A stretch of 64,000 bases of DNA from Verrucomicrobiota bacterium. Its GTDB lineage: Bacteria; Verrucomicrobiota; Kiritimatiellia; JAHIZV01. Below are positions 36,283 through 63,389 of the stretch, one piece after another. Below the pieces are notes generated by a model. It saw nothing but the letters and a program-made list of their open reading frames with translations, did no database searches and was not told the origin of the DNA. How positions within the stretch are numbered: the stretch's first letter is position 1; each line of letters opens with the position of its first letter. The position numbers and the translations under genes were made by a program. The DNA is taken from assembly GCA_018814445.1 (NCBI GenBank), contig JAHIZV010000113.1:12679-76678 (forward strand). Reading direction: 5' to 3'.

Positions 36283-37145
<863 letters not shown>

Positions 37146-39467: not shown

Positions 39468-40925
39468 TCAGGCTTCCGGCTTTTTTGCTATCGCGACAAC
39501 GGAGAGGCCCTTCCACGGGAGGATGGGGTCGATGACGCGCAGCAGCCAGACGAGGTAATCGAAGATTTTCAACTGAAGCTTTCCAAGGTACTTCCTCTTC
39601 ATGATCTTCCCGTTAAGCCACCACGCGGGCACCGCCGCGCTGTTTAACGTGAAAACCTTCTCGACCTCGAAACCGGCGCTTTCCAGCTTATCCCGAAGGT
39701 CCTTCTCGGTGTACCGGCGACGATGTTCAAGGACCTCGTCCAGCGTCCCGAAAAGATCCGGATTGTTCGGCGTCAGGATGCACGCCCGCCCACCCGGCTT
39801 TAGCGCGGTCAGTATGTTCTTCATAGCGGACACATCATCCTCGACGTGTTCGATGACGTTCAGGCAGATGACCGTGTCGAACTTCCGCGCATGTGGTTCG
39901 ATTTCCTCTGCTTTTTCGATATCGATCCGGGCCACGTTCACGCGTGAGTTGCCTTCGTACAGGTTCTCCAGGTAGTGCAGATGCAGAGGATCCAGATCGG
40001 ATGCTACATAGCTCTTCCGCGGAAGGAACTGCCGCGTGAGGTTACCCATTCCGGCGCCGATCTCGAGAACCTCGTCTCCCACCCACGGACGGATTGTCTC
40101 GGCCATCCAACTGTTGAAACGATGGGTCCTTGAAAGGCTGTGCAGGATGCCATGTCCATACTGGTCCGTATACAGGTCATCGACGAGGCGGTAGTAAATG
40201 ATGACGAAAAGCGCCTTCACACCGTCCCACCACGTGATCTTCTTCCCTTCGGCATATGTACGCCCGTGATACGAGATCGGCACTTCGTAGATTCGGCAGC
40301 CCCGCTTGGCCAGTTTCGCGGTCAGCTCGGGCTCCATGCCGAACCGATCTGACCGGATCGGAATAGACCTGAGAATATCGCCCCTCACCATCTTATAGCA
40401 GGTCTCCATGTCCGTCAGATTCAGGTCCGTGAACATGTTCGAGAGCATCGTCAGGAAGCGATTGCCCATACTGTGCCAGAAATAGAGCACACGCCTGTAG
40501 GTACTCGGAAGGAAACGCGAGCCGTAGACAACATCCGCGACACCTTTGAGAATCGGCTTGAGCAGGGTGTTGTAGTCCTCCGGGTCATACTCCAGGTCGG
40601 CATCCTGAATCACCACAATATCGCCGGTCGATTTCTCGATGGCCGTGCGGATTGCGGCGCCCTTGCCTTGATTCAATTCGTGATGGAAGACCTGCAGATT
40701 GCCGTACTGCTCTGCAAGCTGTTTGAGACTGTTCAGTGTGTCGTCTTTCGAGCAGTCGTCAACCGCGATGATCTCTTTCTCGATCCCGTCGGGAAGCCGG
40801 ACGGCCTGGACTTTGGCCATCACGTCCTGAACGGTGAAAGCCTCATTGTAGACTGGTATCAGGATGCTTAGTTTCAAACGACCTCTCCCCGTCTGTGATA
40901 CTGTTCCGCACTTAACATCGGTCAC
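39468..40925 (-). CDS. GT2 (DPM1/GtrB/ArnC-like polyprenyl-phosphate sugar synthase) fused to a class I SAM methyltransferase
   Basis: LSILIPVYNE, DDCSKD, NQGKGAA, QDADLEYDP, VYGSRF, DMETCYK; C-terminal LEIGAGMG, FDTVICLNVIEH. Confidence 0.9.
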   Translation of the reverse strand: MTDVKCGTVSQTGRGRLKLSILIPVYNEAFTVQDVMAKVQAVRLPDGIEKEIIAVDDCSKDDTLNSLKQLAEQYGNLQVFHHELNQGKGAAIRTAIEKSTGDIVVIQDADLEYDPEDYNTLLKPILKGVADVVYGSRFLPSTYRRVLYFWHSMGNRFLTMLSNMFTDLNLTDMETCYKMVRGDILRSIPIRSDRFGMEPELTAKLAKRGCRIYEVPISYHGRTYAEGKKITWWDGVKALFVIIYYRLVDDLYTDQYGHGILHSLSRTHRFNSWMAETIRPWVGDEVLEIGAGMGNLTRQFLPRKSYVASDLDPLHLHYLENLYEGNSRVNVARIDIEKAEEIEPHARKFDTVICLNVIEHVEDDVSAMKNILTALKPGGRACILTPNNPDLFGTLDEVLEHRRRYTEKDLRDKLESAGFEVEKVFTLNSAAVPAWWLNGKIMKRKYLGKLQLKIFDYLVWLLRVIDPILPWKGLSVVAIAKKPEA

Positions 40926-40978
40926 GAACTACCGCGTCTCGCACTGAAATGCAAGCGTCCTTGCAACGGCCCGACCCG

Positions 40979-41560
40979 TCACTCTTTCGTTTTCGGGCGC
41001 AGGAGAAGGCGGTCGACGGCAAGAGCCACGTATCTCTTGTCACGGGTCCGCGGCATGACCCGGTAGCCCACGCGCATGAGAAGCGTATTCCGGCCCGCGT
41101 GCAGCGTTTCCGCGGGCAAGATCCCCTCGCAGGTCTGGAAGTTCGACGTAACCGCAAATACCCAGTTGGTTATGTAGTTGCCGTTGGCATACAGCCCCAT
41201 GTTCTGCCTCCGCCCCTCCGCAAACATCGGCATGGCATCAATCCAGATGGTCGTATCGACCGGCTTTTCCACCTCAAAATACAGCTCCGCCTCCAGGTGC
41301 TCGATCCAGCGAAATGTCCTTTGAAGAAATCTCTCGTATTCATCATGCCCCCAGCCGAATCCGTACAGCCCCCCCGGATCCCGATATCCGAGCAGAATGA
41401 ACTGGTCGCCGGGAAGCGTGTCGGGGAACGTTGGACCCGCCTTACTCTCTGCAAGCCCGGACCGCCGAACTGCGAGAACGCAGAACACCGCGCACGCAAG
41501 CACAAGAGCCCGCTTTGCCATGATTGATTTCACGATCTTCATCAGATAGGGTGTTGTCAT
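40979..41560 (-). CDS. Exported jelly-roll-like hypothetical protein
   Basis: Hydrophobic N-terminus; GW..E....RW...A.L.F...P....Q...Y.NG....G.N.L pattern seen in periplasmic modules of GT-C proteins. Confidence 0.55.
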   Translation of the reverse strand: MTTPYLMKIVKSIMAKRALVLACAVFCVLAVRRSGLAESKAGPTFPDTLPGDQFILLGYRDPGGLYGFGWGHDEYERFLQRTFRWIEHLEAELYFEVEKPVDTTIWIDAMPMFAEGRRQNMGLYANGNYITNWVFAVTSNFQTCEGILPAETLHAGRNTLLMRVGYRVMPRTRDKRYVALAVDRLLLRPKTKE

Positions 41561-41611
41561 TGTTTCTTCTCAAGAAGGAAAATACAAGCACTACGACAGG
41601 AAGCGAAGCCC

Positions 41612-43480
41612 ATGTGCGGAATATGCGGATTCAATCGCCGGGATGAGGAACTGATCACCCGAATGACTGACGTCATGGCCCACAGGGGCCCGGATCAGTC
41701 AGGCCGATTTCTTTCCGACGCATGGTCCCTCGGCCACCGCCGCCTGAGCATCATCGACCTGTCCGAGCAGGGCCGTCAGCCCATGACCAACGAGGACGGC
41801 ACCATCCAGGTCGTTTTCAACGGTGAGATATACAATCACCTGGAAGTCCGGCGGGAGCTGGAAAGCAGGGGTCATATCTTCCGCGGCCATTCGGACACGG
41901 AGATCATTCCGCACGCCTACGAAGAGTATGGCGTGGACTGCGTCAATCACTTCCAGGGCATGTTCGGGATTGCCATCTATGACATTCCGAATGAGACCGT
42001 CATGCTGGCGCGCGACCGAATCGGGATCAAACCTCTTTATTACTACAATTACGACGGGAAGTTCGTCTTCGCATCTGAGATCAAAGCGATCATCGAAGAC
42101 CGCACGATTCCGCGCGAGGTCAACCTGGAGGCGGTCTATTCCTATCTCGGATTCGAATTTGTCCCGGCCCCGAACACGATGTTCAGAAACATCCACAAAC
42201 TCCCTGCCGGACACTGCTTAATCTGGGAAAAGGGCCGCGCGGAAATCCGCTCCTACTGGGATCTGACGTTTCCCGCGGAACCCACACTGACCGACGAGCA
42301 GGAGATCGTCGGGCGCATGCGGGAGTTGATCGAGGACGCGGTTCGCTCGCGCCTGATGAGTGACGTGCCCCTCGGCGCGTTCCTGTCGGGGGGACTCGAC
42401 TCAAGCGCGATCGTGGCGATGATGCGCAAACATATACCGGGCCGCCTGCGCACGTTTACTATCGGCTATGAAGACAAGACGTTCAGCGAACTCGACTACG
42501 CCAGGATCGTTGCCGACGAGTTTGGGACCGATCACCAGGTTCTGATGATTGAAGGCATGTCGCCGGAAAGGATCGAGAGGTCCTTATGGCATTTTGACGA
42601 GCCGATGACCGACCTTTCTTCGATCCCGCTGATGCTGGTGTGCGAGCAGGCAAAGAAGCACATTACGGTGTGCCTCAGCGGCGAGGGCGGCGACGAAGTG
42701 TTCGCCGGTTATGACCGCTTCAAGGCGAGCCGGATCAACAGCTACTACAGTGTCATCCCCGCCGCTCTCCGCGAAGGAATCATCGCTCCGATGATCGGGC
42801 GTCTCGCCGACCGCCCCCAGAAAAAGGGCGCCGTCAACATGCTCAAAAGGTTTATCGAAGGTTCCGTCCTGCCGGAGGAAGGACGGCATCTCCGCTGGCA
42901 GTACTTCTCGAATGCCGCGCAGGATGCGGCGCTTTTCAGTGACAGCTTCTGTCGCGAAGTCAGGCTGGATCCCTTTGACGTGCCCTCGGCCTATAACAAA
43001 CGCTGCACCGCCCGTGACCGGGTGAACCGCGAAATCTATCTCGATATGCGATTCATGATGGCGGACAGCGTTTTGATGAAAGTCGACAAAATGAGCATGG
43101 CCAACTCCCTGGAAATCCGGGTTCCCCTGCTCGATCACCGGCTCGTTGAATTCATGGCCGGCGTACACGGCAACCTGAAACTGAAGGGCCTCGAAACAAA
43201 GCATATCTTCCGGAAAGCGCTCGAAGGCATCCTTCCCGACAAGATCGTTTACCGCGGAAAACAGGGCTACAGCCTCCCTGTGAAGAATTTCCTGCGTGAC
43301 CAACTTAAGGATTACATGTTGGAATTACTTAATGAGTCACCGCTGATCCGGGAAACGGCAAACCGCGCCTATCTGGACCGGGTGATCGAGGAACATATGA
43401 CGTTTAAACACAACCACAATCACCTGCTGTGGGGGTTGATGCATATTGCAATCTGGCATAACCGGTTCTTTCGATCATGA
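41612..43480 (+). CDS. asnB: Asparagine synthase (glutamine-hydrolysing)-family amidotransferase, glycan-locus type
   Basis: N-terminal MCGI (catalytic Cys), HRGPD, GHRRLSIIDL, NGEIYN, ARDRIGIKPLYY, LSGGLDSS, SGEGGDE, KVDKMSMA.SLE.R.P.LD. Confidence 0.93.
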   Translation: MCGICGFNRRDEELITRMTDVMAHRGPDQSGRFLSDAWSLGHRRLSIIDLSEQGRQPMTNEDGTIQVVFNGEIYNHLEVRRELESRGHIFRGHSDTEIIPHAYEEYGVDCVNHFQGMFGIAIYDIPNETVMLARDRIGIKPLYYYNYDGKFVFASEIKAIIEDRTIPREVNLEAVYSYLGFEFVPAPNTMFRNIHKLPAGHCLIWEKGRAEIRSYWDLTFPAEPTLTDEQEIVGRMRELIEDAVRSRLMSDVPLGAFLSGGLDSSAIVAMMRKHIPGRLRTFTIGYEDKTFSELDYARIVADEFGTDHQVLMIEGMSPERIERSLWHFDEPMTDLSSIPLMLVCEQAKKHITVCLSGEGGDEVFAGYDRFKASRINSYYSVIPAALREGIIAPMIGRLADRPQKKGAVNMLKRFIEGSVLPEEGRHLRWQYFSNAAQDAALFSDSFCREVRLDPFDVPSAYNKRCTARDRVNREIYLDMRFMMADSVLMKVDKMSMANSLEIRVPLLDHRLVEFMAGVHGNLKLKGLETKHIFRKALEGILPDKIVYRGKQGYSLPVKNFLRDQLKDYMLELLNESPLIRETANRAYLDRVIEEHMTFKHNHNHLLWGLMHIAIWHNRFFRS

Positions 43481-44217
43481 ACGAAGACAGCATGTACAAG
43501 ATGAAGCAGGTGCGGGACTCGGGTCGCGGCTCATTCGCCCGCTATCGGAAACTGACCTATGGCGACCTCTCTCTCGGCAAGGTGATCTGGGCCGAACTGC
43601 TTGTAACGATGATCGGCGGCCTTCCCGGGGCGGCGGGGCTCTTCCTGCGCAGCCGCCTGTATAGAACCTTCTTCGGCGCAATCGGGAACAACGTGATCTT
43701 CGGGCGGAACATCGTCTTCCGCCATCCGGAAAAGATCCGTCTCGGAGATAACGTGATCCTCGACGACAACTGCGTGATCGATGCGAAGGGGGAAAGCAGC
43801 AAAGGCATCGCGATCGGCAACGGGGTCTATATCGGGCGCAATACGATCGTCTACTGCAAGAACGGCGATATAGAAATCGGCGACTCCGTGAACATCTCAT
43901 CGAATTGCCAGATATTCTCCTCCAACAGTCTTCGCATCGGAAAGGACACGGTGATCGGCGCCTACAGCTACTTCCTCAGCGGGGGGGAGTACAACTACAA
44001 GGACGAGACGCCCTTCGCTCAGCAGAGCGGCATGGGAACCCGCGGGCCGCTGACCATAGGGACCGACTGCTGGATTGGCGCGCGTGTCACGATTCTCGAC
44101 GCGGCAGACGTAGGCGACCGGTGTGTGATCGGTGCAGGCGCCGTGGTGAACAGACCTCTTCCGAGTCACTCCGTGGCGGCTGGAGTTCCCGCGCGCGTCA
44201 TCAAGACCGAGCTCTGA
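43477..44217 (+). CDS. Hexapeptide-repeat (left-handed beta-helix) sugar O-acyltransferase
   Basis: Repeated I.IG..V.IG hexapeptides; IG..CWIGA.V.I, IGAGAVV...LP...VAAGVPAR. Confidence 0.88.
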   Translation: MNEDSMYKMKQVRDSGRGSFARYRKLTYGDLSLGKVIWAELLVTMIGGLPGAAGLFLRSRLYRTFFGAIGNNVIFGRNIVFRHPEKIRLGDNVILDDNCVIDAKGESSKGIAIGNGVYIGRNTIVYCKNGDIEIGDSVNISSNCQIFSSNSLRIGKDTVIGAYSYFLSGGEYNYKDETPFAQQSGMGTRGPLTIGTDCWIGARVTILDAADVGDRCVIGAGAVVNRPLPSHSVAAGVPARVIKTEL

Positions 44218-44962
44218 ACCATCGCTTCAGCACCTGAGCGGGACAACACCGATTGCCCAGCAACCGGCGTTCGACCGCCCTGTCGCGCAGAAAACTCCTG
44301 AGTGAAGACTCAGGATCGTCGGTCTTGAAGTCCACATCTGCGGCGACCGCGTATCGGCCCGCCATTTTCTCCTCGCCGGAAACGGGCAACGGATCTGTAC
44401 CCGCAACGATCTGGAATCCCCGCCTGCGCGCAGTTCCAAACAGCGACGGCTCCGGGAGGAAACGCGGGCGCATCGTAGTGTCGCCAATGAGAAACTCCTC
44501 CGGAGAGCGCACTTCAATGAGTCCGGCGACTATGGCGCGCCTGCGTCCCGTCCATTTTCCCAAAGCCCATGTCAGAACAGGCACCGCACCGGATGCGACC
44601 GCGGCATCGAGAACTTCAGCGACAGGGAGACCATCCGCGATCGTGTTTGCCGTACACAGACAGAGCACCTCGAGGCGCTCCAGCGTCGCGACCTGTCTGC
44701 CCGCAACGACCCAGACCGGCCCCCCTTCGATATCGACGCGCAGGCAAAGTGGACTCGCGGTTTCCTTAACGGACAACCCCGCTTTTCCGAATTTGCCCTT
44801 CCGAAGAGAGGAGAAAAAATCACAGTCGGCACGCTCGGCCAGAAACAGGACCTTGTCAGCGGCCGGCCCGGCCAGGCGGTTCAGATTTCCGACGGCCGAG
44901 GTAAAGAAGGTCGCGGCATCATAGCCGTCATAGAAATGCACATGTGTGTCGGCAATAATCAT
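44201..44962 (-). CDS. PHP-like metal-dependent hydrolase fold protein
   Basis: N-terminal D-T-H-V-H, later AGRQ..T.E..EVL, GTD.LP; convergent with the acyltransferase. Confidence 0.55.
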   Translation of the reverse strand: MIIADTHVHFYDGYDAATFFTSAVGNLNRLAGPAADKVLFLAERADCDFFSSLRKGKFGKAGLSVKETASPLCLRVDIEGGPVWVVAGRQVATLERLEVLCLCTANTIADGLPVAEVLDAAVASGAVPVLTWALGKWTGRRRAIVAGLIEVRSPEEFLIGDTTMRPRFLPEPSLFGTARRRGFQIVAGTDPLPVSGEEKMAGRYAVAADVDFKTDDPESSLRSFLRDRAVERRLLGNRCCPAQVLKRWFRARS

Positions 44963-45046
44963 GCGCCCTTCTTAGCATATTCGTAAGCGGACCTTAATCG
45001 TAATCGTCACTTGAATCCGAACGCCCGTAATGGAAGGATTCAGCAC

Positions 45047-46624
45047 ATGGAACTTCAGGACCAGCCATTGTCCTTTTCCGAGACCGCCGACATCGAAACG
45101 TCATCGGCCGGCTACGCGGCCCGATTCGCCGGACCTGTCGGACGCTGGATGCTGGACAAACAGCTCGCCGCCGTCCGCGATCTTCTGGTCGAGAAGCCAT
45201 ACGCGACCATTCTCGACGTGGGCGGCGGACACGGACAACTCGCGCCGCCTTTGGCCGAAGCGGGCTATGACGTCACCGTCCTGGGAAGTGCCGACGTGTG
45301 CGCGGATCCTGTCCGTGAAGGATTGGAAAAGGGCATACTCCGCTTTGAAACCGGCAATGTCATCGATCTTCCTTTTCCCGATGATTCCTTCGATGTGGTG
45401 CTTTGTTTTCGGCTGGTGACGCATTGCCAAGCATGGCAGACACTGATTTCCGAGCTCTGCCGCGTCGCGCGCAAGGCTGTCATCATCGACTATCCCACGA
45501 ATGCCAGCGTGAATGCCATCGCCCCGGCGCTGTTCGGCGCCAAGAAAAAACTCGAAGGCAACACCCGCGTCTGGAGACTCTTCAGCCGCTCCGAGCTCAA
45601 GACCGTTTTCGGCGGTGCAGGATTCGAAGCGGCGGGATCCAGAAAGCAGTTCTTCTTCCCGATGGTTCTGCACCGGATGATGAAACAGCCATGGCTCTCC
45701 GGGATACTTGAAGGAGTCGCCCGTTTGTGCGGATTGACATCCGTACTGGGATCGCCGGTCGTCGCCCGCTATGAACCGATGAGACAAGACGTGACAGATA
45801 AACTCGATCCCCGCTCACTCAGCGGCATGCGTGTCGCCGTTACTATCCCCCATATTGACGACGGCGTTCTCGGTTGCGGCGGGCTTATCCTTCAGATACC
45901 GGACAAGTCCAACATCCACTTCATTTATGCCTGCGACGGCAAGGCTCTCCCCGCAGGCTCACAAAGTCCTCCGCACGTCGATCTCGGCGCCCTGCGCCGC
46001 GAGGAAGCACTGGCCGCTACGGAAGTACTCGGCATCCCGCGGGAGAACGTCCATTTCCTCGATTATCCGGACTGGCATCTCAAGAAGCATGCGTCCGATC
46101 TGGACTCGGCGCTGAATCTGCTTTTCGATGACATTCAGCCGACACACGTTTTCACACCGTTCCGATATGATCGACATCCCGACCACATTACATTAAGTGC
46201 GCACGTTCGCCGGAAGACGATTGAACGGAAACAATCAATTCGGTTGTTTGAGTACTTCATCTACTATCACTGGAAACTTCTGCCGATGGGAGATATCCGT
46301 AAGTACATTCGCAGCCACCTGCTGATTGCGGCGGAGATTGACCGAGTGTCCGCTGATAAACGCCACGCCTTGAGCAAGTTCGTCAGCCAGGTGACCGTGT
46401 ACTATGAACAGCAGCACAAGCCCGTCCTCGGCGAGGATCTATTGGATGAGTTCTCAAGAGGACCGGAGCTGTTCCTGCGCCCCGCGGGACCGATAAGCGA
46501 CAGAAATATCTTCACGATCGCGCCCTGCCGCGTTCGCCTTGTCCACGCGCTCGAACCTCGCCTCAAGAACTTCAAGGAACAAGTCCTCTCCCTGTTGCAG
46601 CGCCTCAAGAACCGGATACAGTAG
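45047..46624 (+). CDS. Class I SAM methyltransferase fused in frame to a PIG-L/LmbE-family de-N-acetylase
   Basis: ILDVGGGHG, LPFPDDSFDVV (methyltransferase); PHIDD..LGCGG, R..EA..A...LG, D.HPDH (PIG-L Zn ligands); RBS GAAGGA before ATG 45047. Confidence 0.85.
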   Translation: MELQDQPLSFSETADIETSSAGYAARFAGPVGRWMLDKQLAAVRDLLVEKPYATILDVGGGHGQLAPPLAEAGYDVTVLGSADVCADPVREGLEKGILRFETGNVIDLPFPDDSFDVVLCFRLVTHCQAWQTLISELCRVARKAVIIDYPTNASVNAIAPALFGAKKKLEGNTRVWRLFSRSELKTVFGGAGFEAAGSRKQFFFPMVLHRMMKQPWLSGILEGVARLCGLTSVLGSPVVARYEPMRQDVTDKLDPRSLSGMRVAVTIPHIDDGVLGCGGLILQIPDKSNIHFIYACDGKALPAGSQSPPHVDLGALRREEALAATEVLGIPRENVHFLDYPDWHLKKHASDLDSALNLLFDDIQPTHVFTPFRYDRHPDHITLSAHVRRKTIERKQSIRLFEYFIYYHWKLLPMGDIRKYIRSHLLIAAEIDRVSADKRHALSKFVSQVTVYYEQQHKPVLGEDLLDEFSRGPELFLRPAGPISDRNIFTIAPCRVRLVHALEPRLKNFKEQVLSLLQRLKNRIQ

Positions 46625-46627
46625 AGC

Positions 46628-47170
46628 ATGCCCTCACCGATCGCACATGTGTCCGTTGGTCTGGCCGTCTTTCTTCTTCTGAAGGAACAGGCAGGATCTC
46701 TGATACGACACCGCTGGGCGAAATGGATATTGGCCCTCGGTCTGATGGCTTTCTCTCTCCTGCCTGATCTCGATTCGGTCCTCGGCTTTGCCACCGGCGA
46801 TCTCGGGAAATACCACAACAACCTGACGCACAGCATATTCATCGGACTGGCCGCAGCCGCGGTGCTTGGGGCGCTCCTGAGTCTGACAAACCGCGGCGCG
46901 CTTCTGAAATGGTTTCTGCTCATTCTCCTCTGCTACGAACTGCACGTCCTCATGGACTACTTCACCTACGGCCGCGGCATCATGGCATTCTGGCCGTTTA
47001 CGTCCGAACGTTTCAGGTCTCCGGTCCTGCTCTTCTACGGCCTCCACTGGTCCGACGGACTCCTGACTCACAAACATCTGTTGACGCTGTTGAACGAAAT
47101 CGTCTTTGCGGCTCTCTTGTTTGGCGGCTTCTGGCTGCGCGAACGAAGGACAAGCGGCTGGCGGACATAG
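46628..47170 (+). CDS. YdjM-family membrane metal-dependent hydrolase
   Basis: MPSPIAH, LLPDLD, H...THSI, H.L.D.FT..G....WPF. Confidence 0.82.
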   Translation: MPSPIAHVSVGLAVFLLLKEQAGSLIRHRWAKWILALGLMAFSLLPDLDSVLGFATGDLGKYHNNLTHSIFIGLAAAAVLGALLSLTNRGALLKWFLLILLCYELHVLMDYFTYGRGIMAFWPFTSERFRSPVLLFYGLHWSDGLLTHKHLLTLLNEIVFAALLFGGFWLRERRTSGWRT

Positions 47171-47241
47171 CCTCACGGCGGGACATCCCCCGGGAAGCAG
47201 ACCTCCCGGAGCTGAGTTGATGAAGCCCGGACACTGGACTC

Positions 47242-50113: not shown

Positions 50114-50219
50114 CGTGACGCAGAGGATTGCACCAGCCAACGGAACCGTCAAGTTCCCAAGCTGTTGACGGGAGACCCGGTAACGGCTAGAAAGGGATTG
50201 CTCACTGAAATACGGCGCC

Positions 50220-51734: not shown

Positions 51735-51802
51735 CCGGGGAACGTCTATTTCCCGTAGTGAGTACGCGGCCTGTGGATATAGACCACACGCTTCTTCGTG
51801 TC

Positions 51803-55437: not shown

Positions 55438-55647
55438 AGCCCGCGTGACCAACCTCAGCGTCGGCAAAGACCTATAGTGAACGTAAATCGATGTCGAGTG
55501 AATTAATTCCGCCCGCTTTTTCCCGCTTGGCGACCGTGTCTGCGGCGCGACAGATTCCTTGCCTTACTCGAAACCAAGGGGAACCACAGATGGACACGGG
55601 AACCTTTTCTCTTTGGTTCACGGAAAGAGCGCATTACAATCTGTTGC

Positions 55648-58506
55648 GTGAAAGTGAGACAGGTTCAGTTCTTCGTGCTGGCCGCGGTTATTGTCGCGCT
55701 GGGTTTCTACCTGCGCAGCGCGGGTGAATTCAGGGGGCTTGAAAGCGGTCACGTTTTTCATCCCGACGCAGCCAAGCAGGTGCTTGCTCTTTCAAACTAC
55801 CTGAACGACAGGTACGTCTTCTACGCCGACAGTTGGTTTTACGACGGCTACCCGTACGGCTTGAATCACGTTGACGAATGGATCCTTCGCCCCGTCTTCG
55901 CCCTGAGAAGTGCCATTCACAGACATCTGAACACCGGAACCCCCGCCCTCGGTACGCCTGACCGCAGCGAACTGTTCTACTGGGCCAGGGCTCTCCGCGT
56001 CTTGTACGGCATGCTGGTTCTTGTATTAGCCTTCTTCATCTCGAGACGCCTTTTCGATCGTCAGGGCGCCGCTCTCGCGACCGCACTCCTGTTTGCCCTG
56101 TCTCCCCTCGCCTGCACGGTCACGCATTTTGCGACGGGCGACATAGGTGTGGACTTGTTCATAGCCGGGATGCTGCTGACGATGTGTTTCTACGTTCGAC
56201 GGCCGCGCGCCGTCTGGATCTTCGTCTCGGGCCTGTTGTGCGGACTGGCTTTCGCGGCGAAATACCAGGGAGCCCTGGGCTTTTTCGTCATCGCCGCCTT
56301 CCTTCTGCTGGAATGGCGGCTACTCACTCGCAATGCATTTCTCCTTTTCAAACGAAGCGCGCTTGCCGGCGCGGGACTGCTCGCCGGAGTTCTCATGGCC
56401 ACTCCCGCCTACTTCATCAACCCGAAGCGCACATGGCACGATACCCGCATCAATTTCTCGCTTATCAAGAACTACGGCGTCGATGGTGAGTTCCTGAGTA
56501 AACCGTTCTTCGAGAAAGCGTGGTTTGGTCTGAGCCACAATACTCCTCGCGTGCTGGACTCGCTGGGCTGGATCGTGCTGATCCTGTGCGCGGCGGCCTT
56601 TCTCAGGCTGACCGTCGCCCTGGTCAGGAAGCGCAGGATGCTTAGTGAAGACGGAGAGCAGGGACCACGGTTGATTCTGACCTGGTGCGTTCTCGCGTTC
56701 CCCCTGCTCGTGATCCTGATGTCTGTTTCCCTTAAGCCGGCAGTCCAGCCATTCCATTTCTCGTACATCCAGTTGCCCGTCTGCGTCGGCGCCGTGTATG
56801 CCTTGCGTGGATTTGTCTTCAACGGAAAACGTTTCGGCTCTCTCGCGGCGTTCGTGCTCTTTCTGTTCGCCGTGATGGAATTCGGCAGCGCGGCCGTGAA
56901 AGAACAGTTTTTCTGGAGTCGCGAGGACACCCAGGAGGTCGCCTACTCATTCGCGCACCATGTATTTCATCAACCCACGACCGCAACGGACCGCGGTTCA
57001 ACCTCGACGGCCGTGAAGTACTTCTACCTTGAAGAGAACGACCTCGCGGTCTTTCGCAATCAGCCGTACCGCGTTCTTCGCCATGACGCGGACTTCTGGA
57101 ACAGCGTCGCCGTCACGCCCGTTCCGTCCATCCCCTTCCCTGAAGAGCATGATTGGATATTCATGAACGGTCCGGTCTTCCCGCGCAACGACAGGATGTT
57201 CAAGCTCTCGCAGGGCTCCCGAAACGGGAAGCAGTTGGTGTTCTACGAACATCCGCCGGAACTGACCATCGGCCTGCGGTCATCCGCGCGGCCTGTTGAA
57301 GTCCATGCAAACATAGGCGGGGCTAAGTTCACGGAGCAGCTCGATCCGAACGAACAGAAAGTGCTGACCGTGACCCCGCGGAGATGGAAGCGTTTCCGCG
57401 CCGCCGGACCGGACGGCAAAGAAGTATTCATTGTTCCTCTCACTGCCGACGTAAAGATCGGTGAATGCTGGGTCACCGTCATGCAGACGGATGAGGAAGT
57501 GGCCGCTTTCCGACTTTACGGCGGCGATTGTCCGGAGCGTTCCTTCCCGCTGGCTGAGGCCTGGACCGAAACAGAAGCCGCGACCCGGATGGACGAGATC
57601 GCATTTCTTCATTCCTCTGACACGGACAATGCGCTTGTCTCGACCGGACGCGTGTCGCTTCTCCAGCACGATATCGAGCTTCCCGCCGGCGAGTACATTT
57701 TTGACTGCACTGTGGCCGTTGACGGTGAGCGCGGCAGTCTGACGTTCGAACTGGTGGATCCTCACGGAATAGTCACGAAATGGACACCTTCGAATCTTGA
57801 CGCCTACCTCTACGGTGCGGCGTGGAAGAAGAACTGGAAGATCGACTGGGCGAAGCCCGAGTCCTTTGATTTGACCGCTGGGGTGCAGACCATGCGCTAT
57901 CGGTTTGCCAAACCGTTCGCTCCCTATGCGGTCAACATCAAGATAGCGGCCGGCGGAGACAACTGCCGCATCCTTGGCTGGAACCTTCGGCCCGATTCCG
58001 AATTACTGCTGAAACAGATCAGCGCTTACCGAACTGACGGAACGGTTCCTTCGTGGTGTGTCAGATCGCTATCCGCCGGCTGGGAGAACGAACGTGTTGT
58101 GAACGGGGTTTCTTTTCCCGGCGCTCTCAAACTGACCGGCTGCTCATTTCCGGAGCAGATAAAGAGCGGCGCACCACTCAGGTATTCCTTCAGCTTTGAC
58201 ATCGCGGACTGCGATATCCGCAACTACGAAGAACAGGTCGTCTTTGTTCATCTGCTGGACAAGGACGGAAAGAAGGTCGCGACATTCGACTATCCGATTC
58301 AGTTCACCCGCATCGGCTCATCTCCGACGCCCCTGATCGAGGCTATCGCGCCTGCGGATCTGCAGCCCGGCACGTATGACCTGGAAGTGGGCGTCTACAA
58401 TGTGAGAACGCGCATTCGACTGCCGGTCATTCTTTCGGAAGATGCACCCTTCAACGCGCAGCAGCATGCGGTTCAGTTGCAGAAGGTGATAGTCACCTCG
58501 CCCTGA
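55648..58506 (+). CDS. GT-C fold glycosyltransferase #4 (ArnT/GT39-like) with several periplasmic beta-sandwich domains
   Basis: FHPDA loop, AR.L..L.G, H.AT.D, GLAFAAKY; C-terminal VFVHL.D..G...D.P...DL.PG.Y.L.VG.Y Ig-like module. Confidence 0.75.
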   Translation: MKVRQVQFFVLAAVIVALGFYLRSAGEFRGLESGHVFHPDAAKQVLALSNYLNDRYVFYADSWFYDGYPYGLNHVDEWILRPVFALRSAIHRHLNTGTPALGTPDRSELFYWARALRVLYGMLVLVLAFFISRRLFDRQGAALATALLFALSPLACTVTHFATGDIGVDLFIAGMLLTMCFYVRRPRAVWIFVSGLLCGLAFAAKYQGALGFFVIAAFLLLEWRLLTRNAFLLFKRSALAGAGLLAGVLMATPAYFINPKRTWHDTRINFSLIKNYGVDGEFLSKPFFEKAWFGLSHNTPRVLDSLGWIVLILCAAAFLRLTVALVRKRRMLSEDGEQGPRLILTWCVLAFPLLVILMSVSLKPAVQPFHFSYIQLPVCVGAVYALRGFVFNGKRFGSLAAFVLFLFAVMEFGSAAVKEQFFWSREDTQEVAYSFAHHVFHQPTTATDRGSTSTAVKYFYLEENDLAVFRNQPYRVLRHDADFWNSVAVTPVPSIPFPEEHDWIFMNGPVFPRNDRMFKLSQGSRNGKQLVFYEHPPELTIGLRSSARPVEVHANIGGAKFTEQLDPNEQKVLTVTPRRWKRFRAAGPDGKEVFIVPLTADVKIGECWVTVMQTDEEVAAFRLYGGDCPERSFPLAEAWTETEAATRMDEIAFLHSSDTDNALVSTGRVSLLQHDIELPAGEYIFDCTVAVDGERGSLTFELVDPHGIVTKWTPSNLDAYLYGAAWKKNWKIDWAKPESFDLTAGVQTMRYRFAKPFAPYAVNIKIAAGGDNCRILGWNLRPDSELLLKQISAYRTDGTVPSWCVRSLSAGWENERVVNGVSFPGALKLTGCSFPEQIKSGAPLRYSFSFDIADCDIRNYEEQVVFVHLLDKDGKKVATFDYPIQFTRIGSSPTPLIEAIAPADLQPGTYDLEVGVYNVRTRIRLPVILSEDAPFNAQQHAVQLQKVIVTSP

Positions 58507-58520
58507 TTCCGTGATCGAAT

Positions 58521-61106
58521 CTACTTCGTCCTCGTGAACACGATGTTCCTGATCATCATGTCGGCGTTCCGCGAGTAGTCGAACACGAGGTCAAACGGGA
58601 GGTTTGACTTACGGGTGGACCACGCGCCCTGAGCGGGGGCGCCGGCGACAACGGGGAAGTCGGGACTGCGGATTCCCTGCGTCTCCAAATGGAAACTGCC
58701 CAGATCGACACCATCCGCGGCTTCTGTCTCGTACTCGACCGTCACCGCGTACTCGCCGTCCGTCAGCGGAAGTTTCGGACCGTAGAAAATGCCGCCGATC
58801 GGCTCGTAATCTGAGCGGAAACGAACGGCGGTCTCATCGCGGTCCGTATAGCCCGCGTGAAAGAAGAGCGCCGCAGGCACGGCGAGTGGTTCACCCGCCG
58901 CAATTTCAGGGAAGGTCCCCGAGCTGTATATGGCGACGTCTAGATCAACCGAACCTTCCTCGCACTGAATCACGGGCCGGACTTTGCGACTTCCCGACAG
59001 GTCTCCTATCGGCACGACGACCCAATGCCACGCGTCGTTGTCGCAGATGACCTCCTGTAGATTGGTAACGCCATTGTCCAGCCCCATGCGAATCGACAGA
59101 CGGCCGTGGCCTTTCTGCCTCAAACTGAAGTTCCCTTTCGGAGCCTGAAGATGCTCCGTCTGATACATCGCCACGGGCGGGTCCCCCACAGCGAAGCGAC
59201 GGAAGTGATCTCCGCTCGCGGAGACATCCTGGAGGACTATCTTCTCCGAGCCCTCGAACCACTCGAGTTCGAAACTGGCGAACGAGCACGGGAAGAAGAC
59301 GTTCCACTTTTCCAGCGCGGGAGGTTTCACCATGCCCTTTTCCAGTATCCTGAACGCCCAGACGTTCTGGCCCTGCTCCATGAACTCAAGCCGCGGATGA
59401 TTCATGAGCCGCCAGGCTGTATATCCCACAGGAAAGTAGCTGACCTTCTCAGGGAACGCGTCTTCATGCAAGAGCACGTACCTGATGCCGCGCGCGAGAA
59501 GGTTGTCGAGTTGATCATCGTCAAGCAGGCCGGCGTTCGCCGTTTCAAAACGATGGTAGACGTCATCGATGTAGTCCGTCGAAACAACGGGCATATAGCC
59601 GTTGATCATGCGAATGCGATAGAGCGATACGTAGTGCTCATAGAGAGAGGCCCACGAAGAATCACCGGGCCAGATGGGCAGAACGATCACTCTCGGGTTT
59701 TCCCCGCGAGTCTCCGCGTCCGCAGCAACGGCGGCGTAGGCAGGTTGCTGGTCGTCGAGCAGGCATATGGTCGGACGAATCTGCAGTTTGTACTCGGGCA
59801 CAGCCAGCAGAACAAAACAGAGAGGAATGGCAAACGACCACGGCCGCCCCGCCTTGCCGGCGCAAAAAGCGTTCAGCGACAACGCCGCCGCCACCGCCAT
59901 GAGTGGAGGAAGGATGGCGAAGATCTTACCCGTCTGGCGGATCATCTCGTAGGGAGGAATCAACTTGCGGGCTTTGACGAACAGAAATCCTCCCCTCGGC
60001 CCGCCGGGTCCCAGGGCAAGGATTATGATCGCGGCGATGCCTGCGAGAAGCGCGGCATACACGACTGTCTGTCGCCAGCAGTGCCGCGGATTCCTGATGA
60101 TCAGATACAGGTGGAGGAGGACGCCCGCGATAAGAAACAGGGGGAGCACATAGCCGATATATATGGCCGCATGATGTCCCAACCCGCGCCACTCGAACAG
60201 GCCTTGCGCGACGGGAGTGAACAGGGAGACTTCATGCAGACTTCGCCCGTGTTCGACGGTCGTCTCCGCTGTATCGTCACCGACGACCCCGAGGCTGAGA
60301 CCCAGCAGGCAGACGGCCATGACAGCCAGCGGGAGGCAGGCGACGACAATTCTTCGCCACGCGCGCAGGCTCTTCCATTGCATCTCCTCGTTCTGCAACA
60401 GAACGAAAACGGCCCAGAACGGAATGAGAAGGAAGCCGAAGAAGAACACATGCGCGTCATTTGAAAATGGAACCAGGATTCCGAGCGCCGCCACACAGCC
60501 GCCGAGGATGCGGCCCCGCCTGATCGCGGAGTCGATGCCCCACAGAAGAACGGGAACCCATGCCATTTCGAAACCCGTCGGACTGCCTCCGCACAGCGTG
60601 GCCCAGCGGTAGGGAAAAGCTATGGCGAGCAGGGCCAGCATCGCCGCGGCCAGTTCGCTCTTCACGAAACGCCTCAGCAGAAGCCACGTGAACAGATGCG
60701 TCATCCACAGCGAGATGAATCCCATCAGGTTCCAGCCCAGCGCCCGCCCTCCAAGCCATTGCCCGAGAGAGAAGATGAGTACGGAAGGCCAGTAGTCGAG
60801 GCCCTCATACTCAGTGTCCGCGTCGTCACCGGTATTGAATTCGTACAGGTTGTGAAACCACGGCGTGTGCCCCGCGATCATGTCGCTGACCAGCCAGTAG
60901 TTGTAGAGAAGTTGAAGATGGTCCCCCTGGAACATGCGCCGCATATTCCCCTTCTCGATATTCGTGGAGGAAGACGGCACACCATCGAGGACCACGCGAG
61001 GAAGAGGCCACGAGAAGAAAGCCCACACGCCCAACGTCAGCAGCAGCGCCCACAGCATCGTTTTTTTCGCAGACATGTATCTCCTCCGCAACGGGCTATC
61101 CTGCAT
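58521..61106 (-). CDS. GT-C fold (YfhO-like) glycosyltransferase #5 with C-terminal jelly-roll domains
   Basis: GDHLQ..Y..W loop, many TMs, INGY.P, LL.RGI.YV.LH, C-terminal FYGPKLPL..G.Y.V; alternative start 61076. Confidence 0.72.
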   Translation of the reverse strand: MQDSPLRRRYMSAKKTMLWALLLTLGVWAFFSWPLPRVVLDGVPSSSTNIEKGNMRRMFQGDHLQLLYNYWLVSDMIAGHTPWFHNLYEFNTGDDADTEYEGLDYWPSVLIFSLGQWLGGRALGWNLMGFISLWMTHLFTWLLLRRFVKSELAAAMLALLAIAFPYRWATLCGGSPTGFEMAWVPVLLWGIDSAIRRGRILGGCVAALGILVPFSNDAHVFFFGFLLIPFWAVFVLLQNEEMQWKSLRAWRRIVVACLPLAVMAVCLLGLSLGVVGDDTAETTVEHGRSLHEVSLFTPVAQGLFEWRGLGHHAAIYIGYVLPLFLIAGVLLHLYLIIRNPRHCWRQTVVYAALLAGIAAIIILALGPGGPRGGFLFVKARKLIPPYEMIRQTGKIFAILPPLMAVAAALSLNAFCAGKAGRPWSFAIPLCFVLLAVPEYKLQIRPTICLLDDQQPAYAAVAADAETRGENPRVIVLPIWPGDSSWASLYEHYVSLYRIRMINGYMPVVSTDYIDDVYHRFETANAGLLDDDQLDNLLARGIRYVLLHEDAFPEKVSYFPVGYTAWRLMNHPRLEFMEQGQNVWAFRILEKGMVKPPALEKWNVFFPCSFASFELEWFEGSEKIVLQDVSASGDHFRRFAVGDPPVAMYQTEHLQAPKGNFSLRQKGHGRLSIRMGLDNGVTNLQEVICDNDAWHWVVVPIGDLSGSRKVRPVIQCEEGSVDLDVAIYSSGTFPEIAAGEPLAVPAALFFHAGYTDRDETAVRFRSDYEPIGGIFYGPKLPLTDGEYAVTVEYETEAADGVDLGSFHLETQGIRSPDFPVVAGAPAQGAWSTRKSNLPFDLVFDYSRNADMMIRNIVFTRTK

Positions 61107-61218
61107 ATTGCACCGGAGCGTGTCCAGTCAGCAGGCGCATATACCTGATCGGGGCGCGTCTGCGATTAGGTGCGAACCCCGGCGAAAACACGACATGAGC
61201 CCATATTTTTATCCCTTT

Positions 61219-61275
61219 CTTAATCGTAATCCTGCTCGCAATCATAATCGATTAGGATCAGGAGGGAATAGGAGA
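61219..61275. repeat. Hexamer-periodic imperfect inverted repeat (CTTAAT CGTAAT ... ATTAGG ATCAGG) in a divergent intergenic region
   Basis: Read directly; the first 13 nt CTTAATCGTAATC recur exactly at 44993. Confidence 0.45.
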
Positions 61276-61397
61276 TCAGTGAAGTGTCTGCACTATCGAC
61301 CGCTCCGCGATAGCAACTGTTCCGCCCTGCACCCCGTGCAGGCGGAGAAGCAAAACTCGTCTGGACCAATTATCCGTTAGTCGCTACTGTCTGCGGC

Positions 61398-63389
61398 ATG
61401 AAGAGGGTGGAGAAACAACCGTACGCTGTCACAGCCCTGCTTATCCTGCTTGTCGCATATGTGATCGTGCTGGTGCGCACCGCGTGGGTGAGTGACGACG
61501 CGTACATAACACTGCGAAGCGTCGACAATTTTGTGCATGGATTCGGTCCGCGGTGGAACATCGCCGAAAGGGTCCAGGCTTTCACGCATCCGCTGTGGAT
61601 GTTTCTTCTGTCGGCGATGTATTTCGTCACGCGGGAGGCCTATTTCACCAGCATCATCGCCAGCATGGCCCTGTCCGTGGCCGCCCTGTACCTGTTGTTC
61701 TTCAAGATCGCGCGCAGTTCGACGAGTGCCCTTCTCGCGGGGGTCATTCTTGTCATCTCAAAGGCGTTCACGGACTACTCGACCTCCTCGCTGGAGAATC
61801 CGCTTTCCCACTTTCTCCACGCCATCCTTGTCATCGTTTTCTTCGCGCGCCCGTTCGACGGAAAACAGCTCACGAGGCTCTTCTTTGTTACCGCGCTTGC
61901 GGGATTGACGCGGCCCGACCTGGCGCCCCTTCTGCTCCCGCCGGTCGCCTACAGGACCTGGAAGTACCTGCGCTCGGAAGATGGTTCATGGAGCAGTCTC
62001 ATCAAAGCCTTCTTCATCGGTTTCTCACCGCTGATCGCGTGGGAGGTATTCTCGATCTTCTACTACGGCTTCCCCTTTCCAAACACCGCGTACGCGAAAC
62101 TGAACACGGGGATTGAGCGGTCGGATCTGATTCAACAAGGCTTCTGCTACCTGATGGAATCGGTCCGGGTCGATCCCGTCACACTGCTCGCCATCGGCTC
62201 GGGCATGGTGCTGACTTTCCGCAGGAAGGCTCCCGGCGAAAGGGCATTGGCCGGAGGCATCATACTCTTCTTCGTTTATCTTCTGCTGATCGGCGGCGAT
62301 TTCATGACAGGACGGTTCCTGACCTCCTCGCTGTTTCTGGCGGCGGTGCTGATCAGCCGGCAGGACATGCAGCCCGCGGAGGTCGCGGTCGGATGCGTGA
62401 TCCTTCTCATCCTCGGCCTCAACGCGCCGATGAACCCGATCAAGAGCGACGACAGCTACGAGTACAAGAACTTCTGGGCGCACAACGGCATCACCGATGA
62501 GCGGGGATGGTTCTACCAGGATACAGGCTTGCTCAAATACAAGCGGGAAACCGGGCGTATGCCGGTCGACGCGCATGTCGATTGGGGCCTGAAGGCGAAA
62601 GAGGAAGCGAAGGCGAATGGCGGGCGGCTCGTCCTGGATCACCCCGACGGCACGATCGGGTTCTACGGTTTCTTTGCGGGACCGACCGTTCACGTGATCG
62701 ACCAGTTCGCTCTTGCCGATCCCCTGCTGGCACGACTTCCCTCCGAGGCCAGCCTCACGCACCGCTGGCGTCCCGGCCACTTCACTCGCGTGGTCCCCGC
62801 GGGATATATCGAGACCCTGGAGACGGGAACGAACAGTTTCGTCGACAAGCAAATCGGCGAGTACTACGAGAAGCTGTCGACCGTAGTCAGCGGGCCGCTG
62901 TTCAGCCTGAAGAGATTTGCAGAAATCTGGAACTTCAACACCGGCAAGTACGATGACCTCCTGGAAGGCAAGATGGATTTCTATGCCAGCAAGTATGCCC
63001 AGCAGACCGGGTCGAGGGAACTGCAGGAGGGATCGCTCTCGGAGGCCGTGCTGATCGCGACCCCCGGCATTGACAAGACAGGATTCCTCGCCTTCGGCAA
63101 TCATCTGACACTGAAGCGCGGCAAATACATCGCCCGATACAGATTAAAAGTCTCCGAACTCGGTGACGGCCCTGTCGGCGACCTGGATATCTGTTGCGAT
63201 CACGGAAGCGCGACACTCGCGAACAAGCCTCTGACCGGCGCCGACTTCGCGGAGGCGGGCAAGTGGATCTATCTCGATCTGCCCTTCGAAGTCAAAAAGC
63301 GCAAGATCCGCGACGTCGAACTACGCTTCTACTTCTCCGGCGGCGCACAGATCTGCGTCGATACAATCGGCCTGCGCTGGGAAGATTGA
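61398..63389 (+). CDS. GT-C fold glycosyltransferase #6, AftB (arabinofuranosyltransferase)-like
   Basis: DDAYITLRSVDN...G.G..WN..ERV.A.T.PLW, TRPD, PNTAYAK, GGDFMTGRF, GITDER..Y, RPGH, all recalled AftB-family motifs; C-terminal jelly-roll. Confidence 0.78.
   Translation: MKRVEKQPYAVTALLILLVAYVIVLVRTAWVSDDAYITLRSVDNFVHGFGPRWNIAERVQAFTHPLWMFLLSAMYFVTREAYFTSIIASMALSVAALYLLFFKIARSSTSALLAGVILVISKAFTDYSTSSLENPLSHFLHAILVIVFFARPFDGKQLTRLFFVTALAGLTRPDLAPLLLPPVAYRTWKYLRSEDGSWSSLIKAFFIGFSPLIAWEVFSIFYYGFPFPNTAYAKLNTGIERSDLIQQGFCYLMESVRVDPVTLLAIGSGMVLTFRRKAPGERALAGGIILFFVYLLLIGGDFMTGRFLTSSLFLAAVLISRQDMQPAEVAVGCVILLILGLNAPMNPIKSDDSYEYKNFWAHNGITDERGWFYQDTGLLKYKRETGRMPVDAHVDWGLKAKEEAKANGGRLVLDHPDGTIGFYGFFAGPTVHVIDQFALADPLLARLPSEASLTHRWRPGHFTRVVPAGYIETLETGTNSFVDKQIGEYYEKLSTVVSGPLFSLKRFAEIWNFNTGKYDDLLEGKMDFYASKYAQQTGSRELQEGSLSEAVLIATPGIDKTGFLAFGNHLTLKRGKYIARYRLKVSELGDGPVGDLDICCDHGSATLANKPLTGADFAEAGKWIYLDLPFEVKKRKIRDVELRFYFSGGAQICVDTIGLRWED

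Follow-up and report, generated by a model that had tools for sequence, protein, structure and literature searches.

A Candidate Mosaic Cell-Envelope Glycan Island With Six Different GT-C Glycosyltransferase Genes in a Kiritimatiellia Bacterium

We identified a gene island in Verrucomicrobiota (Kiritimatiellia) DNA in which six different membrane-bound glycosyltransferases of the GT-C superfamily are encoded side by side. The stretch of DNA that was analyzed, referred to as the window, is 64,000 nt long, and the island occupies its 39.4-64 kb region, where the listing of open reading frames (ORFs) contains 16 plausible genes and one gene fragment. The six GT-C genes are designated A to F (Table 1). 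We propose that the island is a mosaic devoted to a cell-envelope glycan, with GT-C enzymes that add different branches or serve different acceptors, and assign a probability of about 60% to this reading. Different branches or acceptors are the most likely arrangement because the island consists of separately conserved modules rather than of a fixed six-step line.

Six Consecutive Genes Encode GT-C Enzymes of Different Families

The original prediction had described six consecutive ORFs with multiple transmembrane (TM) segments at 50220-63389, each with its own acidic motif in the first loop. All six ORFs are intact, their lengths agree with those of their homologues, and each of the motifs is present and conserved within its own family. 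In the A family alignment, the motif YPYELEWMEGG contains an invariant Glu (E45) and a second one (E42) that is kept in at least 90% of the sequences. The corresponding family alignments show D35 of B to be invariant and D34 to be kept in at least 90% of the sequences, D37 and E38 of C to be invariant, and both G51 and D52 of the GDHLQ motif of E to be invariant. The Asp of the D motif, H-[P/S]-D-x-x-K-Q, is kept in 13 of 13 sequences, and the DD motif of F aligns with the DD of AftB (9dlf). Membrane segments were counted by crude hydropathy and not by a dedicated topology predictor; by this measure the proteins have multiple hydrophobic segments in their first ~370-430 residues followed by a soluble C-terminal part, with just four segments counted in F. 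The AlphaFold models of B and E consist of helical bundles followed by alpha/beta or beta domains.

The family of each protein was examined by sequence searches. D matches the Pfam model PMT_2 (PF13231) with an E-value of 2.3e-10 (41.4 bits, gathering cut-off 26.1) and Pfam PMT with an E-value of 1e-6. The other five proteins have no Pfam PMT_2 match of their own, and no meaningful match to a solved structure was obtained when A, B, C, and E were searched as single sequences. At the level of the families, most of the 92 homologues of A carry PF13231 and are named GT39 or ArnT-like in their sources, 10 of 34 sampled relatives from the more than 4000 in the B family match PMT_2, and two homologues of C carry PF13231. 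Many C homologues also carry PF00754 (F5/8 type C, discoidin), and a profile of C matched CBM32-type domains among the solved structures, with the discoidin domain alone being matched. Alignment of the C and A families with hhalign gave a probability of 81% over 299 columns; the values among the A, C, and E families, 62-81%, are moderate and were taken as supportive, not decisive. F matches AftB 9dlf (E-value 6e-16 over residues 28-282, the DD motif included) and the NCBIfam model NF041481 (AftB, CAZy GT89; 5.7e-17 over residues 26-256), the latter with 61 bits against a cut-off of 1050. F thus resembles AftB in its N-terminal catalytic region without being an AftB orthologue. The E family comprises more than 570 homologues of ~850 amino acids from Kiritimatiellae and Lentisphaerae, and E had no match in Pfam, NCBIfam or PDB sequences, even when a 30-sequence profile was used against the solved structures.

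The GT-C fold was compared in three dimensions for B and E, and A, C, D, and F were placed by family matches. For the AlphaFold model of B (pLDDT 90.1), the best Foldseek match was ArnT (5f15; E-value 9e-7, TMq 0.55), with AglB, AftB, STT3, ALG12/9/3, AftD, and AftA as further matches, and every match with an E-value below 0.01 was a GT-C enzyme. The model of E (pLDDT 85.6) matched AftD best (6w98; 5.6e-12) and in addition EmbC/A/B, STT3, AftA, ArnT, and DPY19. The C-terminal beta-sandwiches of the E model matched sugar-binding-type domains of GH101, Vip3, and Cry. These comparisons bear on the explanation that A-F are Wzy proteins, WaaL proteins or transporters whose clustering is incidental. 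Such a view could draw on A, B, C, and E having neither a direct Pfam match nor a sequence match to a solved structure. However, it conflicts with the PMT_2 matches at family level, with the conserved acidic residues of the first loops and with the conserved synteny blocks described below. In addition, structure matches with a probability of 1.00 for the membrane domains of B and E were GT-C enzymes, transporters reaching at most 0.25, and no Wzy or WaaL family was matched by A-F in Pfam or NCBIfam. Judged from the predicted structures of B and E, this explanation appears already largely refuted, and we consider it extremely improbable.

All six proteins are thus GT-C enzymes, as had been predicted, on evidence of differing strength: PMT_2 for D, family-level PMT_2 matches for A, B, and C, AftB for F, and the models of B and E. 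The PMT_2-like members are A, C, and D. F resembles AftB and has B as a relative, and E represents an unannotated AftD/Emb-like family, which is best regarded as a family of the GT-C superfamily that has not been described. Membership in specific known families fails except for PMT_2 (D itself; A, B, and C at family level). The ArnT equivalog model NF009784 gave an E-value of 0.42 for D and nothing for the other five, so that there is no ArnT orthologue among them, and A-F had no Pfam or NCBIfam match to the mannosyltransferase families of glycosylphosphatidylinositol (GPI) or phosphatidylinositol mannoside (PIM) synthesis (PIG-M, PIG-V, PIG-B, PimE). In pairwise BLASTP comparisons among A-F the sole link was between B and F (1e-4), indicating that the six are not recent paralogues.

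Judged from their spacing, the six genes are divided among five or more transcription units. A and B are convergent with 68 bp between them, C and D are divergent (180 bp), D and E are convergent (14 bp), and E and F are divergent (291 bp). C and B form one operon, as the stop codon of C overlaps the start codon of B by 4 bp.

Parts of the Island Recur in Other Genomes

To our knowledge, comparable local clustering of GT-C genes has been studied mainly in mycobacterial cell-wall genes. The gene neighborhood of E was analyzed in 80 E-anchored loci, selected as one genome per GTDB species and extending at most 10 kb to each side. These loci were searched with the window proteins and with family hidden Markov models, and separately all neighboring ORFs were subjected to unbiased clustering; the loci named L090, L093, L001-L004, and L095 come from outside this set. 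In most of the 80 loci, E is the sole large multi-TM gene. At least four large multi-TM ORFs within 10 kb of E occur in just six loci, indicating that six neighboring GT-C genes are far from a chance arrangement. Within 10 kb of E, A and F were each found in 0/80 loci, a B-like gene in 3/80, and C and D in 10/80 each. Among F homologues in metagenomes (65 loci, 23 of them at least 8 kb long), E was nearby in none, A in one, D in one, and a B-like gene in two. A fixed six-enzyme assembly line, one of the forms in which the island had been envisaged, is not supported by these data: F homologues are essentially unlinked in the long loci, the window genes form at least five transcription units, and PIG-L accompanies E only in L010 and L090.

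Random accretion of the genes, which had been named as the alternative, does not fit the data either. The search in other genomes returned partial blocks, and the whole six-gene set is not conserved. L093 contains A(+), B(-), and C(-) in exactly the order and orientation of the window, followed by Wzx and a GT4, and the convergent A-B pair is kept in L001-L004, remote from any glycan genes. Within 19 kb, L090 contains the hexapeptide-repeat acetyltransferase HexAT, A, a 903-aa membrane ORF, a D-like gene, a GT4, PIG-L, E, a B-like gene, C, and a 519-aa membrane ORF; the D-like gene, GT4, PIG-L, and E are contiguous. L095 carries Wzm/Wzt, a PMT_2 gene, A, a GT87 gene, and a D-like gene.

E itself has a recurrent set of neighbors. 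A GT4 was found near E in 34/80 loci (ORF clustering), HexAT in 22-33, the epimerase in 26-30 and often directly downstream of E, AsnB in 9-15, and a PF03706 'flippase-like' membrane protein in 13-15, and the gene order HexAT-PF03706-E-epimerase recurs among the loci. From these gene neighborhoods, the conserved E block comprises the acetyltransferase, the epimerase, an AsnB-type amidotransferase, a methyltransferase, a GT4, and the PF03706 flippase-like protein, with D as a frequent but optional neighbor and F as unlinked otherwise. Hits to the fusion protein of methyltransferase and PIG-L domains were rejected as linkage of PIG-L to E. When the domains were split, the methyltransferase half was near E in 14/80 loci and the PIG-L half in 1/80 plus L090, which makes two relatives in all (L010 and L090).

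The prediction that the island continues beyond the window was borne out by the C-terminal end of a minus-strand GT4, with its stop codon at ~63779, that runs off the window edge. This fragment is homologous to a GT4 whose gene stops immediately before E in L010, L016, and L039; in L007, too, the E homologue comes right after a GT4 gene. The window has F, encoded on the other strand, between the terminal GT4 and E. As GT4 is directly upstream of E in other genomes and F stands between them here, this arrangement suggests that F was inserted into an older GT4-E unit.

Neighbors and Fusions of E Suggest a Lipid-Carrier-Dependent Step

Several further gene types near E in other genomes are associated with lipid carriers or surface polysaccharides. 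A Wzt ABC-transporter ATPase was found in 14-17/80 loci and Wzx in 7-9/80 (either of the two in 26/80), a CE4 deacetylase in 6-7/80, and an AlgX-type acetyltransferase in 6/80. An ArnC-like GT2 was found in 10/80 loci; its representative matches ArnC at 1e-59 and is full-length with the TM pair. With ArnC-like GT2s, PF03706 genes and fusions, acetyltransferases, deacetylases, Wzt/Wzx, and GT4s as its neighbors, E is suggested to act in a lipid-carrier-dependent step of surface-polysaccharide synthesis. The fold, the invariant Asp, and the gene neighbors together would mark E as a lipid-carrier-dependent transferase.

Four E homologues (P0159, P0178, P0192, and P0198; ~1070-1170 aa) are fused to PF03706 (LPG_synthase_TM, flippase-like), and the C homologue P0242 (1171 aa) is fused to a Wzx/MurJ-type flippase. 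Both kinds of fusion are Rosetta-stone links of GT-C enzymes to lipid flipping. PF03706 proteins are covered by the PplT concept (bioRxiv 10.1101/2022.03.11.483950).

A different tailoring set surrounds the same GT-C in L091 (12851-17872), where E lies beside a carbamoyltransferase, a YdjC-family (NaxD/HpnK-type) deacetylase, a GT1_3 glycosyltransferase, and a methyltransferase. A link to hopanoids, considered on account of the HpnA-like epimerase, the HpnL-like PF03706 proteins, and the HpnK-like YdjC protein of L091, was rejected because the scores were far under the Hpn cut-offs; no hopanoid-specific genes were seen among the ORFs scanned.

The Upstream Half Encodes a Candidate Donor Synthase and Sugar-Tailoring Enzymes

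The first gene of the island encodes a GT2 domain fused to a methyltransferase. Compared with solved structures, the GT2 domain matched dolichyl-phosphate mannose synthase (DPMS; 5mlz, 2.5e-15), GtrB (5ekp, 2e-12), and ArnC (1e-9), and its NCBIfam matches were AglJ (3e-30), PpgS, a dolichyl-P-hexose transferase, and ArnC, all under the curated cut-offs. It is 28% identical to an ArnC-like GT2. By these matches the GT2 domain is assigned to the polyprenyl-phosphate sugar synthase class. A role as donor synthase is less certain for this protein than for the ArnC-like GT2s elsewhere, because it has no TM helices and is fused to a methyltransferase. The GT2 donor synthase of the original prediction was thus upheld as regards its class; the fusion and the absence of the C-terminal TM pair of ArnC and GtrB do not fit it.

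The predicted PIG-L deacetylase is present as a domain (residues 277-400) of a fusion protein, above the Pfam cut-off (2.4e-23; 83.5 bits compared to 28.2), and the methyltransferase half of this protein matches Methyltransf_11 (residues 68-155). The AsnB-type amidotransferase scored 577 bits with TIGR03108 (XrtA/PEP-CTERM amidotransferase; cut-off 817), and the 3' end of its gene is overlapped by the 5' end of the HexAT gene over 4 bp. The epimerase matched the NCBIfam models of OleD (2e-47) and HpnA (3e-46), both under the cut-off. The GT4 at 48468-49646 showed weak matches to solved structures, with PimA first (5e-7, C-terminal domain only) and then MshA and BshA, and scored 37.6 bits with a GlcNAc-PG synthase model that has a cut-off of 480. 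The start of this GT4 gene is overlapped by 4 bp by the 3' end of the 192-aa ORF, whose own annotated start (50221, -) overlaps back to back with that of A (50220, +) and leaves no promoter space. Probably one of the starts has been called wrongly; were the 192-aa ORF to begin at its internal Met (residue 37), ~107 bp would separate it from A. The ORFs scanned between 39.4 and 64 kb gave no match to Wzx, Wzy, an ABC transporter or GtrA.

Could these genes form a single pathway to a GPI-like or lipoarabinomannan (LAM)-like lipoglycan? In such a line the GT4 would make a GlcNAc-lipid, PIG-L would deacetylate it, the product would be flipped, and the six GT-Cs would extend it step by step from polyprenyl-phosphate sugars, as happens with eukaryotic GPI anchors or mycobacterial PIM/LM/LAM. 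The gene content is consistent with this, since it includes GT4, PIG-L, a DPMS-class GT2, and several GT-Cs, as eukaryotic GPI assembly does (PIG-A as GT4, PIG-L, DPM1, and PIG-M/V/B/Z). It would also agree with L090, where an unbroken run of D, GT4, PIG-L, and E has A, C, and a B-like gene close by, and with PimA, MshA, and BshA as the best structure matches of the window GT4. The bacterial gpgSDF system, a partial analogue of GPI synthesis, makes GlcN-phosphatidylglycerol with a GT4, a deacetylase, and a UPF0104 flippase (PMC12713373), and the GT4, CE4 deacetylase, and UPF0104/PF03706 flippase-like genes near E in other genomes resemble it; GpgD, however, is a COG3233 deacetylase and not PIG-L. 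Against a single line, the six genes do not travel together, they are distributed over at least five transcription units in alternating orientation, and no flippase was found in 39-64 kb. Moreover, linkage of the PIG-L domain to E is rare (two loci), the GT4 matches are weak and generic, and none of A-F belongs to the GPI or PIM mannosyltransferase families. We consider the single line unlikely. A Kiritimatiellia envelope lipoglycan of a kind not yet described is likewise doubtful. Here, along a GPI/LAM-like route, GT4 and the de-N-acetylase would make an amino-sugar lipid at the cytoplasmic face, a PF03706-type flippase (none was found in 39-64 kb) would turn it over, and the class-wide E family, with A-D and F as accessory enzymes, would extend and branch it from polyprenyl-phosphate sugars.

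Modification of lipid A or the lipopolysaccharide core would follow another scheme, in which undecaprenyl-phosphate-linked HexNAc is deacetylated and then transferred by a GT-C to lipid A phosphates. The window contains lpxB, a UDP-GlcNAc 3-dehydrogenase-like gene, and lpxI 2-5 kb upstream of the first gene of the island, the B model is closest to ArnT, and A homologues are named ArnT-like in their sources. An unrelated YdjM-like ORF and a PIN toxin gene (VapC-like; 38779-39156, -) nevertheless separate the lpx genes from the island. Known amino-sugar systems use CE4 (ArnD) or YdjC deacetylases, not PIG-L; NaxD reportedly takes the YdjC-type deacetylase role in the FlmF2/NaxD/FlmK scheme. The logic of GT2, deacylase, and GT-C is established for ArnC/ArnD/ArnT, FlmF2/NaxD/FlmK, and LgmA/B/C, in which a GT2 loads undecaprenyl phosphate and a periplasmic GT-C performs the transfer (PMC2233673). 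ArnC-like GT2s (1e-59) and CE4 deacetylases occur near E elsewhere, as in those systems. The island differs from them in its PIG-L-type, methyltransferase-fused deacetylase, in a GT2 without TM helices, in having no ArnT orthologue (no protein reaches NF009784), in that no ArnE/F flippase was found, and in having six GT-Cs instead of one, which far exceeds what lipid A decoration needs. Furthermore, C, D, E, and F have large periplasmic domains that ArnT lacks. Lipid A modification is therefore regarded as very unlikely.

A Mosaic Island Is the Favored Reading

In the mosaic island that we favor, the cytoplasmic steps would be encoded by the first half (39.4-50.2 kb). Sugars would be tailored by the AsnB-type amidotransferase, the WbbJ-type acetyltransferase, the SDR-type epimerase, the S-adenosylmethionine (SAM) methyltransferases, and the PIG-L de-N-acetylase, with a GT4 also taking part, and the DPMS/ArnC-class GT2 would load a sugar onto polyprenyl phosphate. 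Each GT-C would then take a polyprenyl-phosphate-linked sugar at the periplasmic face by means of its acidic first-loop residue, and would place it on an envelope glycan held by the periplasmic domain of the enzyme itself, the discoidin domain in C and the beta-sandwiches in E. The modules are the A-B-C block, the E gene accompanied by acetyltransferase, epimerase, amidotransferase, methyltransferase, and GT4 genes, and the additional genes D and F. We infer a lipid-linked donor, a periplasmic site of action, and a glycan rather than a lipid or protein acceptor, and likewise the sugar that would be transferred. Glycan acceptors are favored because C and E bear carbohydrate-binding-type periplasmic domains, as Emb and Aft enzymes do. 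An array of paralogs, each with its own acceptor, had been proposed as an alternative to a linear pathway. This array fits better than one linear pathway.

A close precedent is the mycobacterial and corynebacterial set of EmbA/B/C, AftA-D, Ppm1/PpgS, and Rv3779, in which several GT-Cs are encoded close together; the GT-Cs of arabinogalactan and LAM synthesis have periplasmic carbohydrate-binding domains and use polyprenyl-phosphate sugars made by a DPMS-class GT2 to lengthen or branch an envelope glycan (PMC3485146). F matches the AftB sequence, the E model matches AftD and Emb proteins best, and the window GT2 matches the PpgS model. The differences are that the host of the island is a Gram-negative member of the Planctomycetes-Verrucomicrobia-Chlamydiae (PVC) group, that F reaches 61 bits where the AftB model demands 1050, that E lacks sequence similarity to AftD and Emb, and that the island shows no sign of genes for decaprenyl-phospho-arabinose synthesis.

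Several observations weigh against the mosaic reading. No donor, acceptor or product is established for the families of A-F, and proteins or lipid A can likewise be the acceptors of PMT_2-type enzymes. Support from hhalign for C and E is moderate (62-81%), and no flippase (GtrA, PF03706, Wzx) or exporter was found among the ORFs scanned in 39-64 kb. In the window GT2, which carries a fused methyltransferase, the C-terminal TM pair of ArnC/GtrB is missing, and across genomes the GT2 domain, the PIG-L domain, and the GT4 at 48468-49646 are weakly or rarely linked to E. Finally, FG-GAP proteins are found beside A homologues in four loci, an arrangement that would be compatible with a protein as the acceptor of A.

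The last point leads to protein O-glycosylation, in which the PMT_2-type enzymes A, D, and perhaps C would glycosylate secreted or surface proteins, as PMT, TMTC, and TMEM260 do. D matches both PMT and PMT_2. Most A homologues and some B and C homologues also match PMT_2 (PF13231; GT39/GT83-like), and all have an acidic first-loop motif and a multi-TM core; A, B, and C themselves stay below the model, and C and D have long extra periplasmic domains. Family membership does not fix function, however, because the acceptors of this broad family range from lipid A and glycans to proteins. FG-GAP repeat proteins directly adjoin A-family genes in L001 (8852-9817), L005 (8869-9837), L093 (826-3681), and L095 (5012-7873), and may be acceptors or partner proteins of the A homologues; no FG-GAP gene lies beside A in the window. 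A protein with TMEM260_N and TPR domains lies ~8 kb from the E homologue in L007, so that such enzymes exist in the group. On the other side, C has a carbohydrate-binding-type domain and the neighbors of E are polysaccharide genes. Protein O-glycosylation is in our view quite unlikely.

Host, Significance, and Other Features of the Window

Kiritimatiellia are abundant in anoxic sediments and guts, where they degrade sulfated and other complex glycans; we know of nothing reported on their own envelope glycans. The host is Gram-negative, as the window carries lpxB and lpxI. A literature search on Kiritimatiellota with GT-C and on DUF6541/DUF6311 returned nothing relevant. Homologues of E and C with a named source come from Kiritimatiellae, Lentisphaerae, and Verrucomicrobiota metagenome-assembled genomes, and relatives reach ~58% amino-acid identity at most. 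Kiritimatiellia can thus pack six different GT-C enzymes into 13 kb. The mechanism, on comparison with known systems, would be the expected periplasmic glycosylation from polyprenyl-phosphate sugars, and what appears new are members of known families and the unannotated E family. Should the substrate of E prove to be a conserved envelope polymer, E would establish a new CAZy-type GT-C family and serve as a marker of that polymer. Experimental handles are offered by the conserved A-B-C block, by the HexAT-PF03706-E-epimerase operon, and by the natural E-PF03706 and C-Wzx fusions. The value lies mainly in annotation and targeted glycobiology, with no current concept being overturned, and both the density of GT-C genes and the E family merit follow-up by PVC glycobiologists.

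Table 1. Positions of the island genes and of other glycan-related genes in the 64,000-nt window.
Feature	Position	Strand	Length, matches and remarks
WbaP-type phosphoglycosyl transferase (Bac_transf + CoA_binding_3), Wzc-like GNVR/P-loop and Wza-like Poly_export + SLBB exopolysaccharide genes	1071-5973	-	Pfam
Possible outer-membrane beta-barrel gene	6011-7342	-	Pfam match below threshold
lpxB and lpxI flanking GFO/IDH/MocA oxidoreductase, closest to UDP-GlcNAc 3-dehydrogenase	34196-37145	-	
GT2 + SAM methyltransferase fusion	39468-40925	-	485 aa; Glycos_transf_2 4e-30 + Methyltransf_12/23
ORF with hydrophobic N-terminus, possibly secreted; island membership uncertain	40979-41560	-	193 aa; no Pfam match
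AsnB-type glutamine amidotransferase, exopolysaccharide-associated kind	41612-43480	+	Asn_synthase 3e-97 + GATase_7
Hexapeptide-repeat sugar acetyltransferase, HexAT (WbbJ/WcaF-like)	43477-44217	+	Hexapep; WbbJ 2e-24, WcaF 2.5e-22
253-aa protein	44201-44962	-	No Pfam/NCBIfam match; homologues near E + methyltransferase gene in 5/80 loci
SAM methyltransferase + PIG-L/LmbE-type de-N-acetylase fusion	45011-46624	+	537 aa
YdjM-family inner-membrane protein	46628-47170	+	YdjM 1.4e-18; near E in 5-6/80 loci
SDR-type NAD-dependent sugar epimerase/dehydratase (HpnA/OleD-like)	47484-48467	+	Epimerase 1.5e-40
GT4 (GT-B fold) cytoplasmic glycosyltransferase	48468-49646	-	Glycos_transf_1 3.5e-18
Charged ORF, judged coiled-coil-like	49643-50221	-	192 aa; no family match, no homologue in 80 loci
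A, GT-C enzyme, PMT_2 (GT39/GT83-like) family	50220-51734	+	504 aa
B, GT-C enzyme, DD motif	51803-53401	-	532 aa
C, GT-C enzyme + C-terminal discoidin (F5/8 type C, CBM32-like) domain	53398-55467	-	689 aa
D, GT-C enzyme, PMT_2 domain + ~520-aa C-terminal extracytoplasmic region	55648-58506	+	952 aa
E, GT-C enzyme, unannotated family	58521-61106	-	861 aa (database version P0093: 851 aa)
F, GT-C enzyme, AftB-like N-terminal domain	61398-63389	+	663 aa
GT4 glycosyltransferase, C-terminal end only	63779-64000	-	Translation; homologous to GT4 upstream of E elsewhere

The G+C content is even throughout the window (0.52-0.60). Scans of the island found no tRNA genes, repeats or other marks of mobile elements, and scans for promoters, terminators, and repeats revealed no common regulatory motif. 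Genes of the WbaP/Wzc/Wza type lie ~32 kb from the first gene of the island and could export a polymer that the island decorates. The UDP-GlcNAc 3-dehydrogenase-like enzyme encoded between lpxB and lpxI would suggest a GlcN3N-type lipid A. The PIN-domain toxin gene mentioned above stands between these lpx genes and the island. A trans-polyprenyl diphosphate synthase gene followed by a gene for a DUF4062 protein was found at 27899-30089 (+). An 852-aa protein encoded at 18846-21404 (-) has many ankyrin repeats and a C-terminal CBM48/AMPK glycogen-binding module, which is an unusual combination in bacteria.

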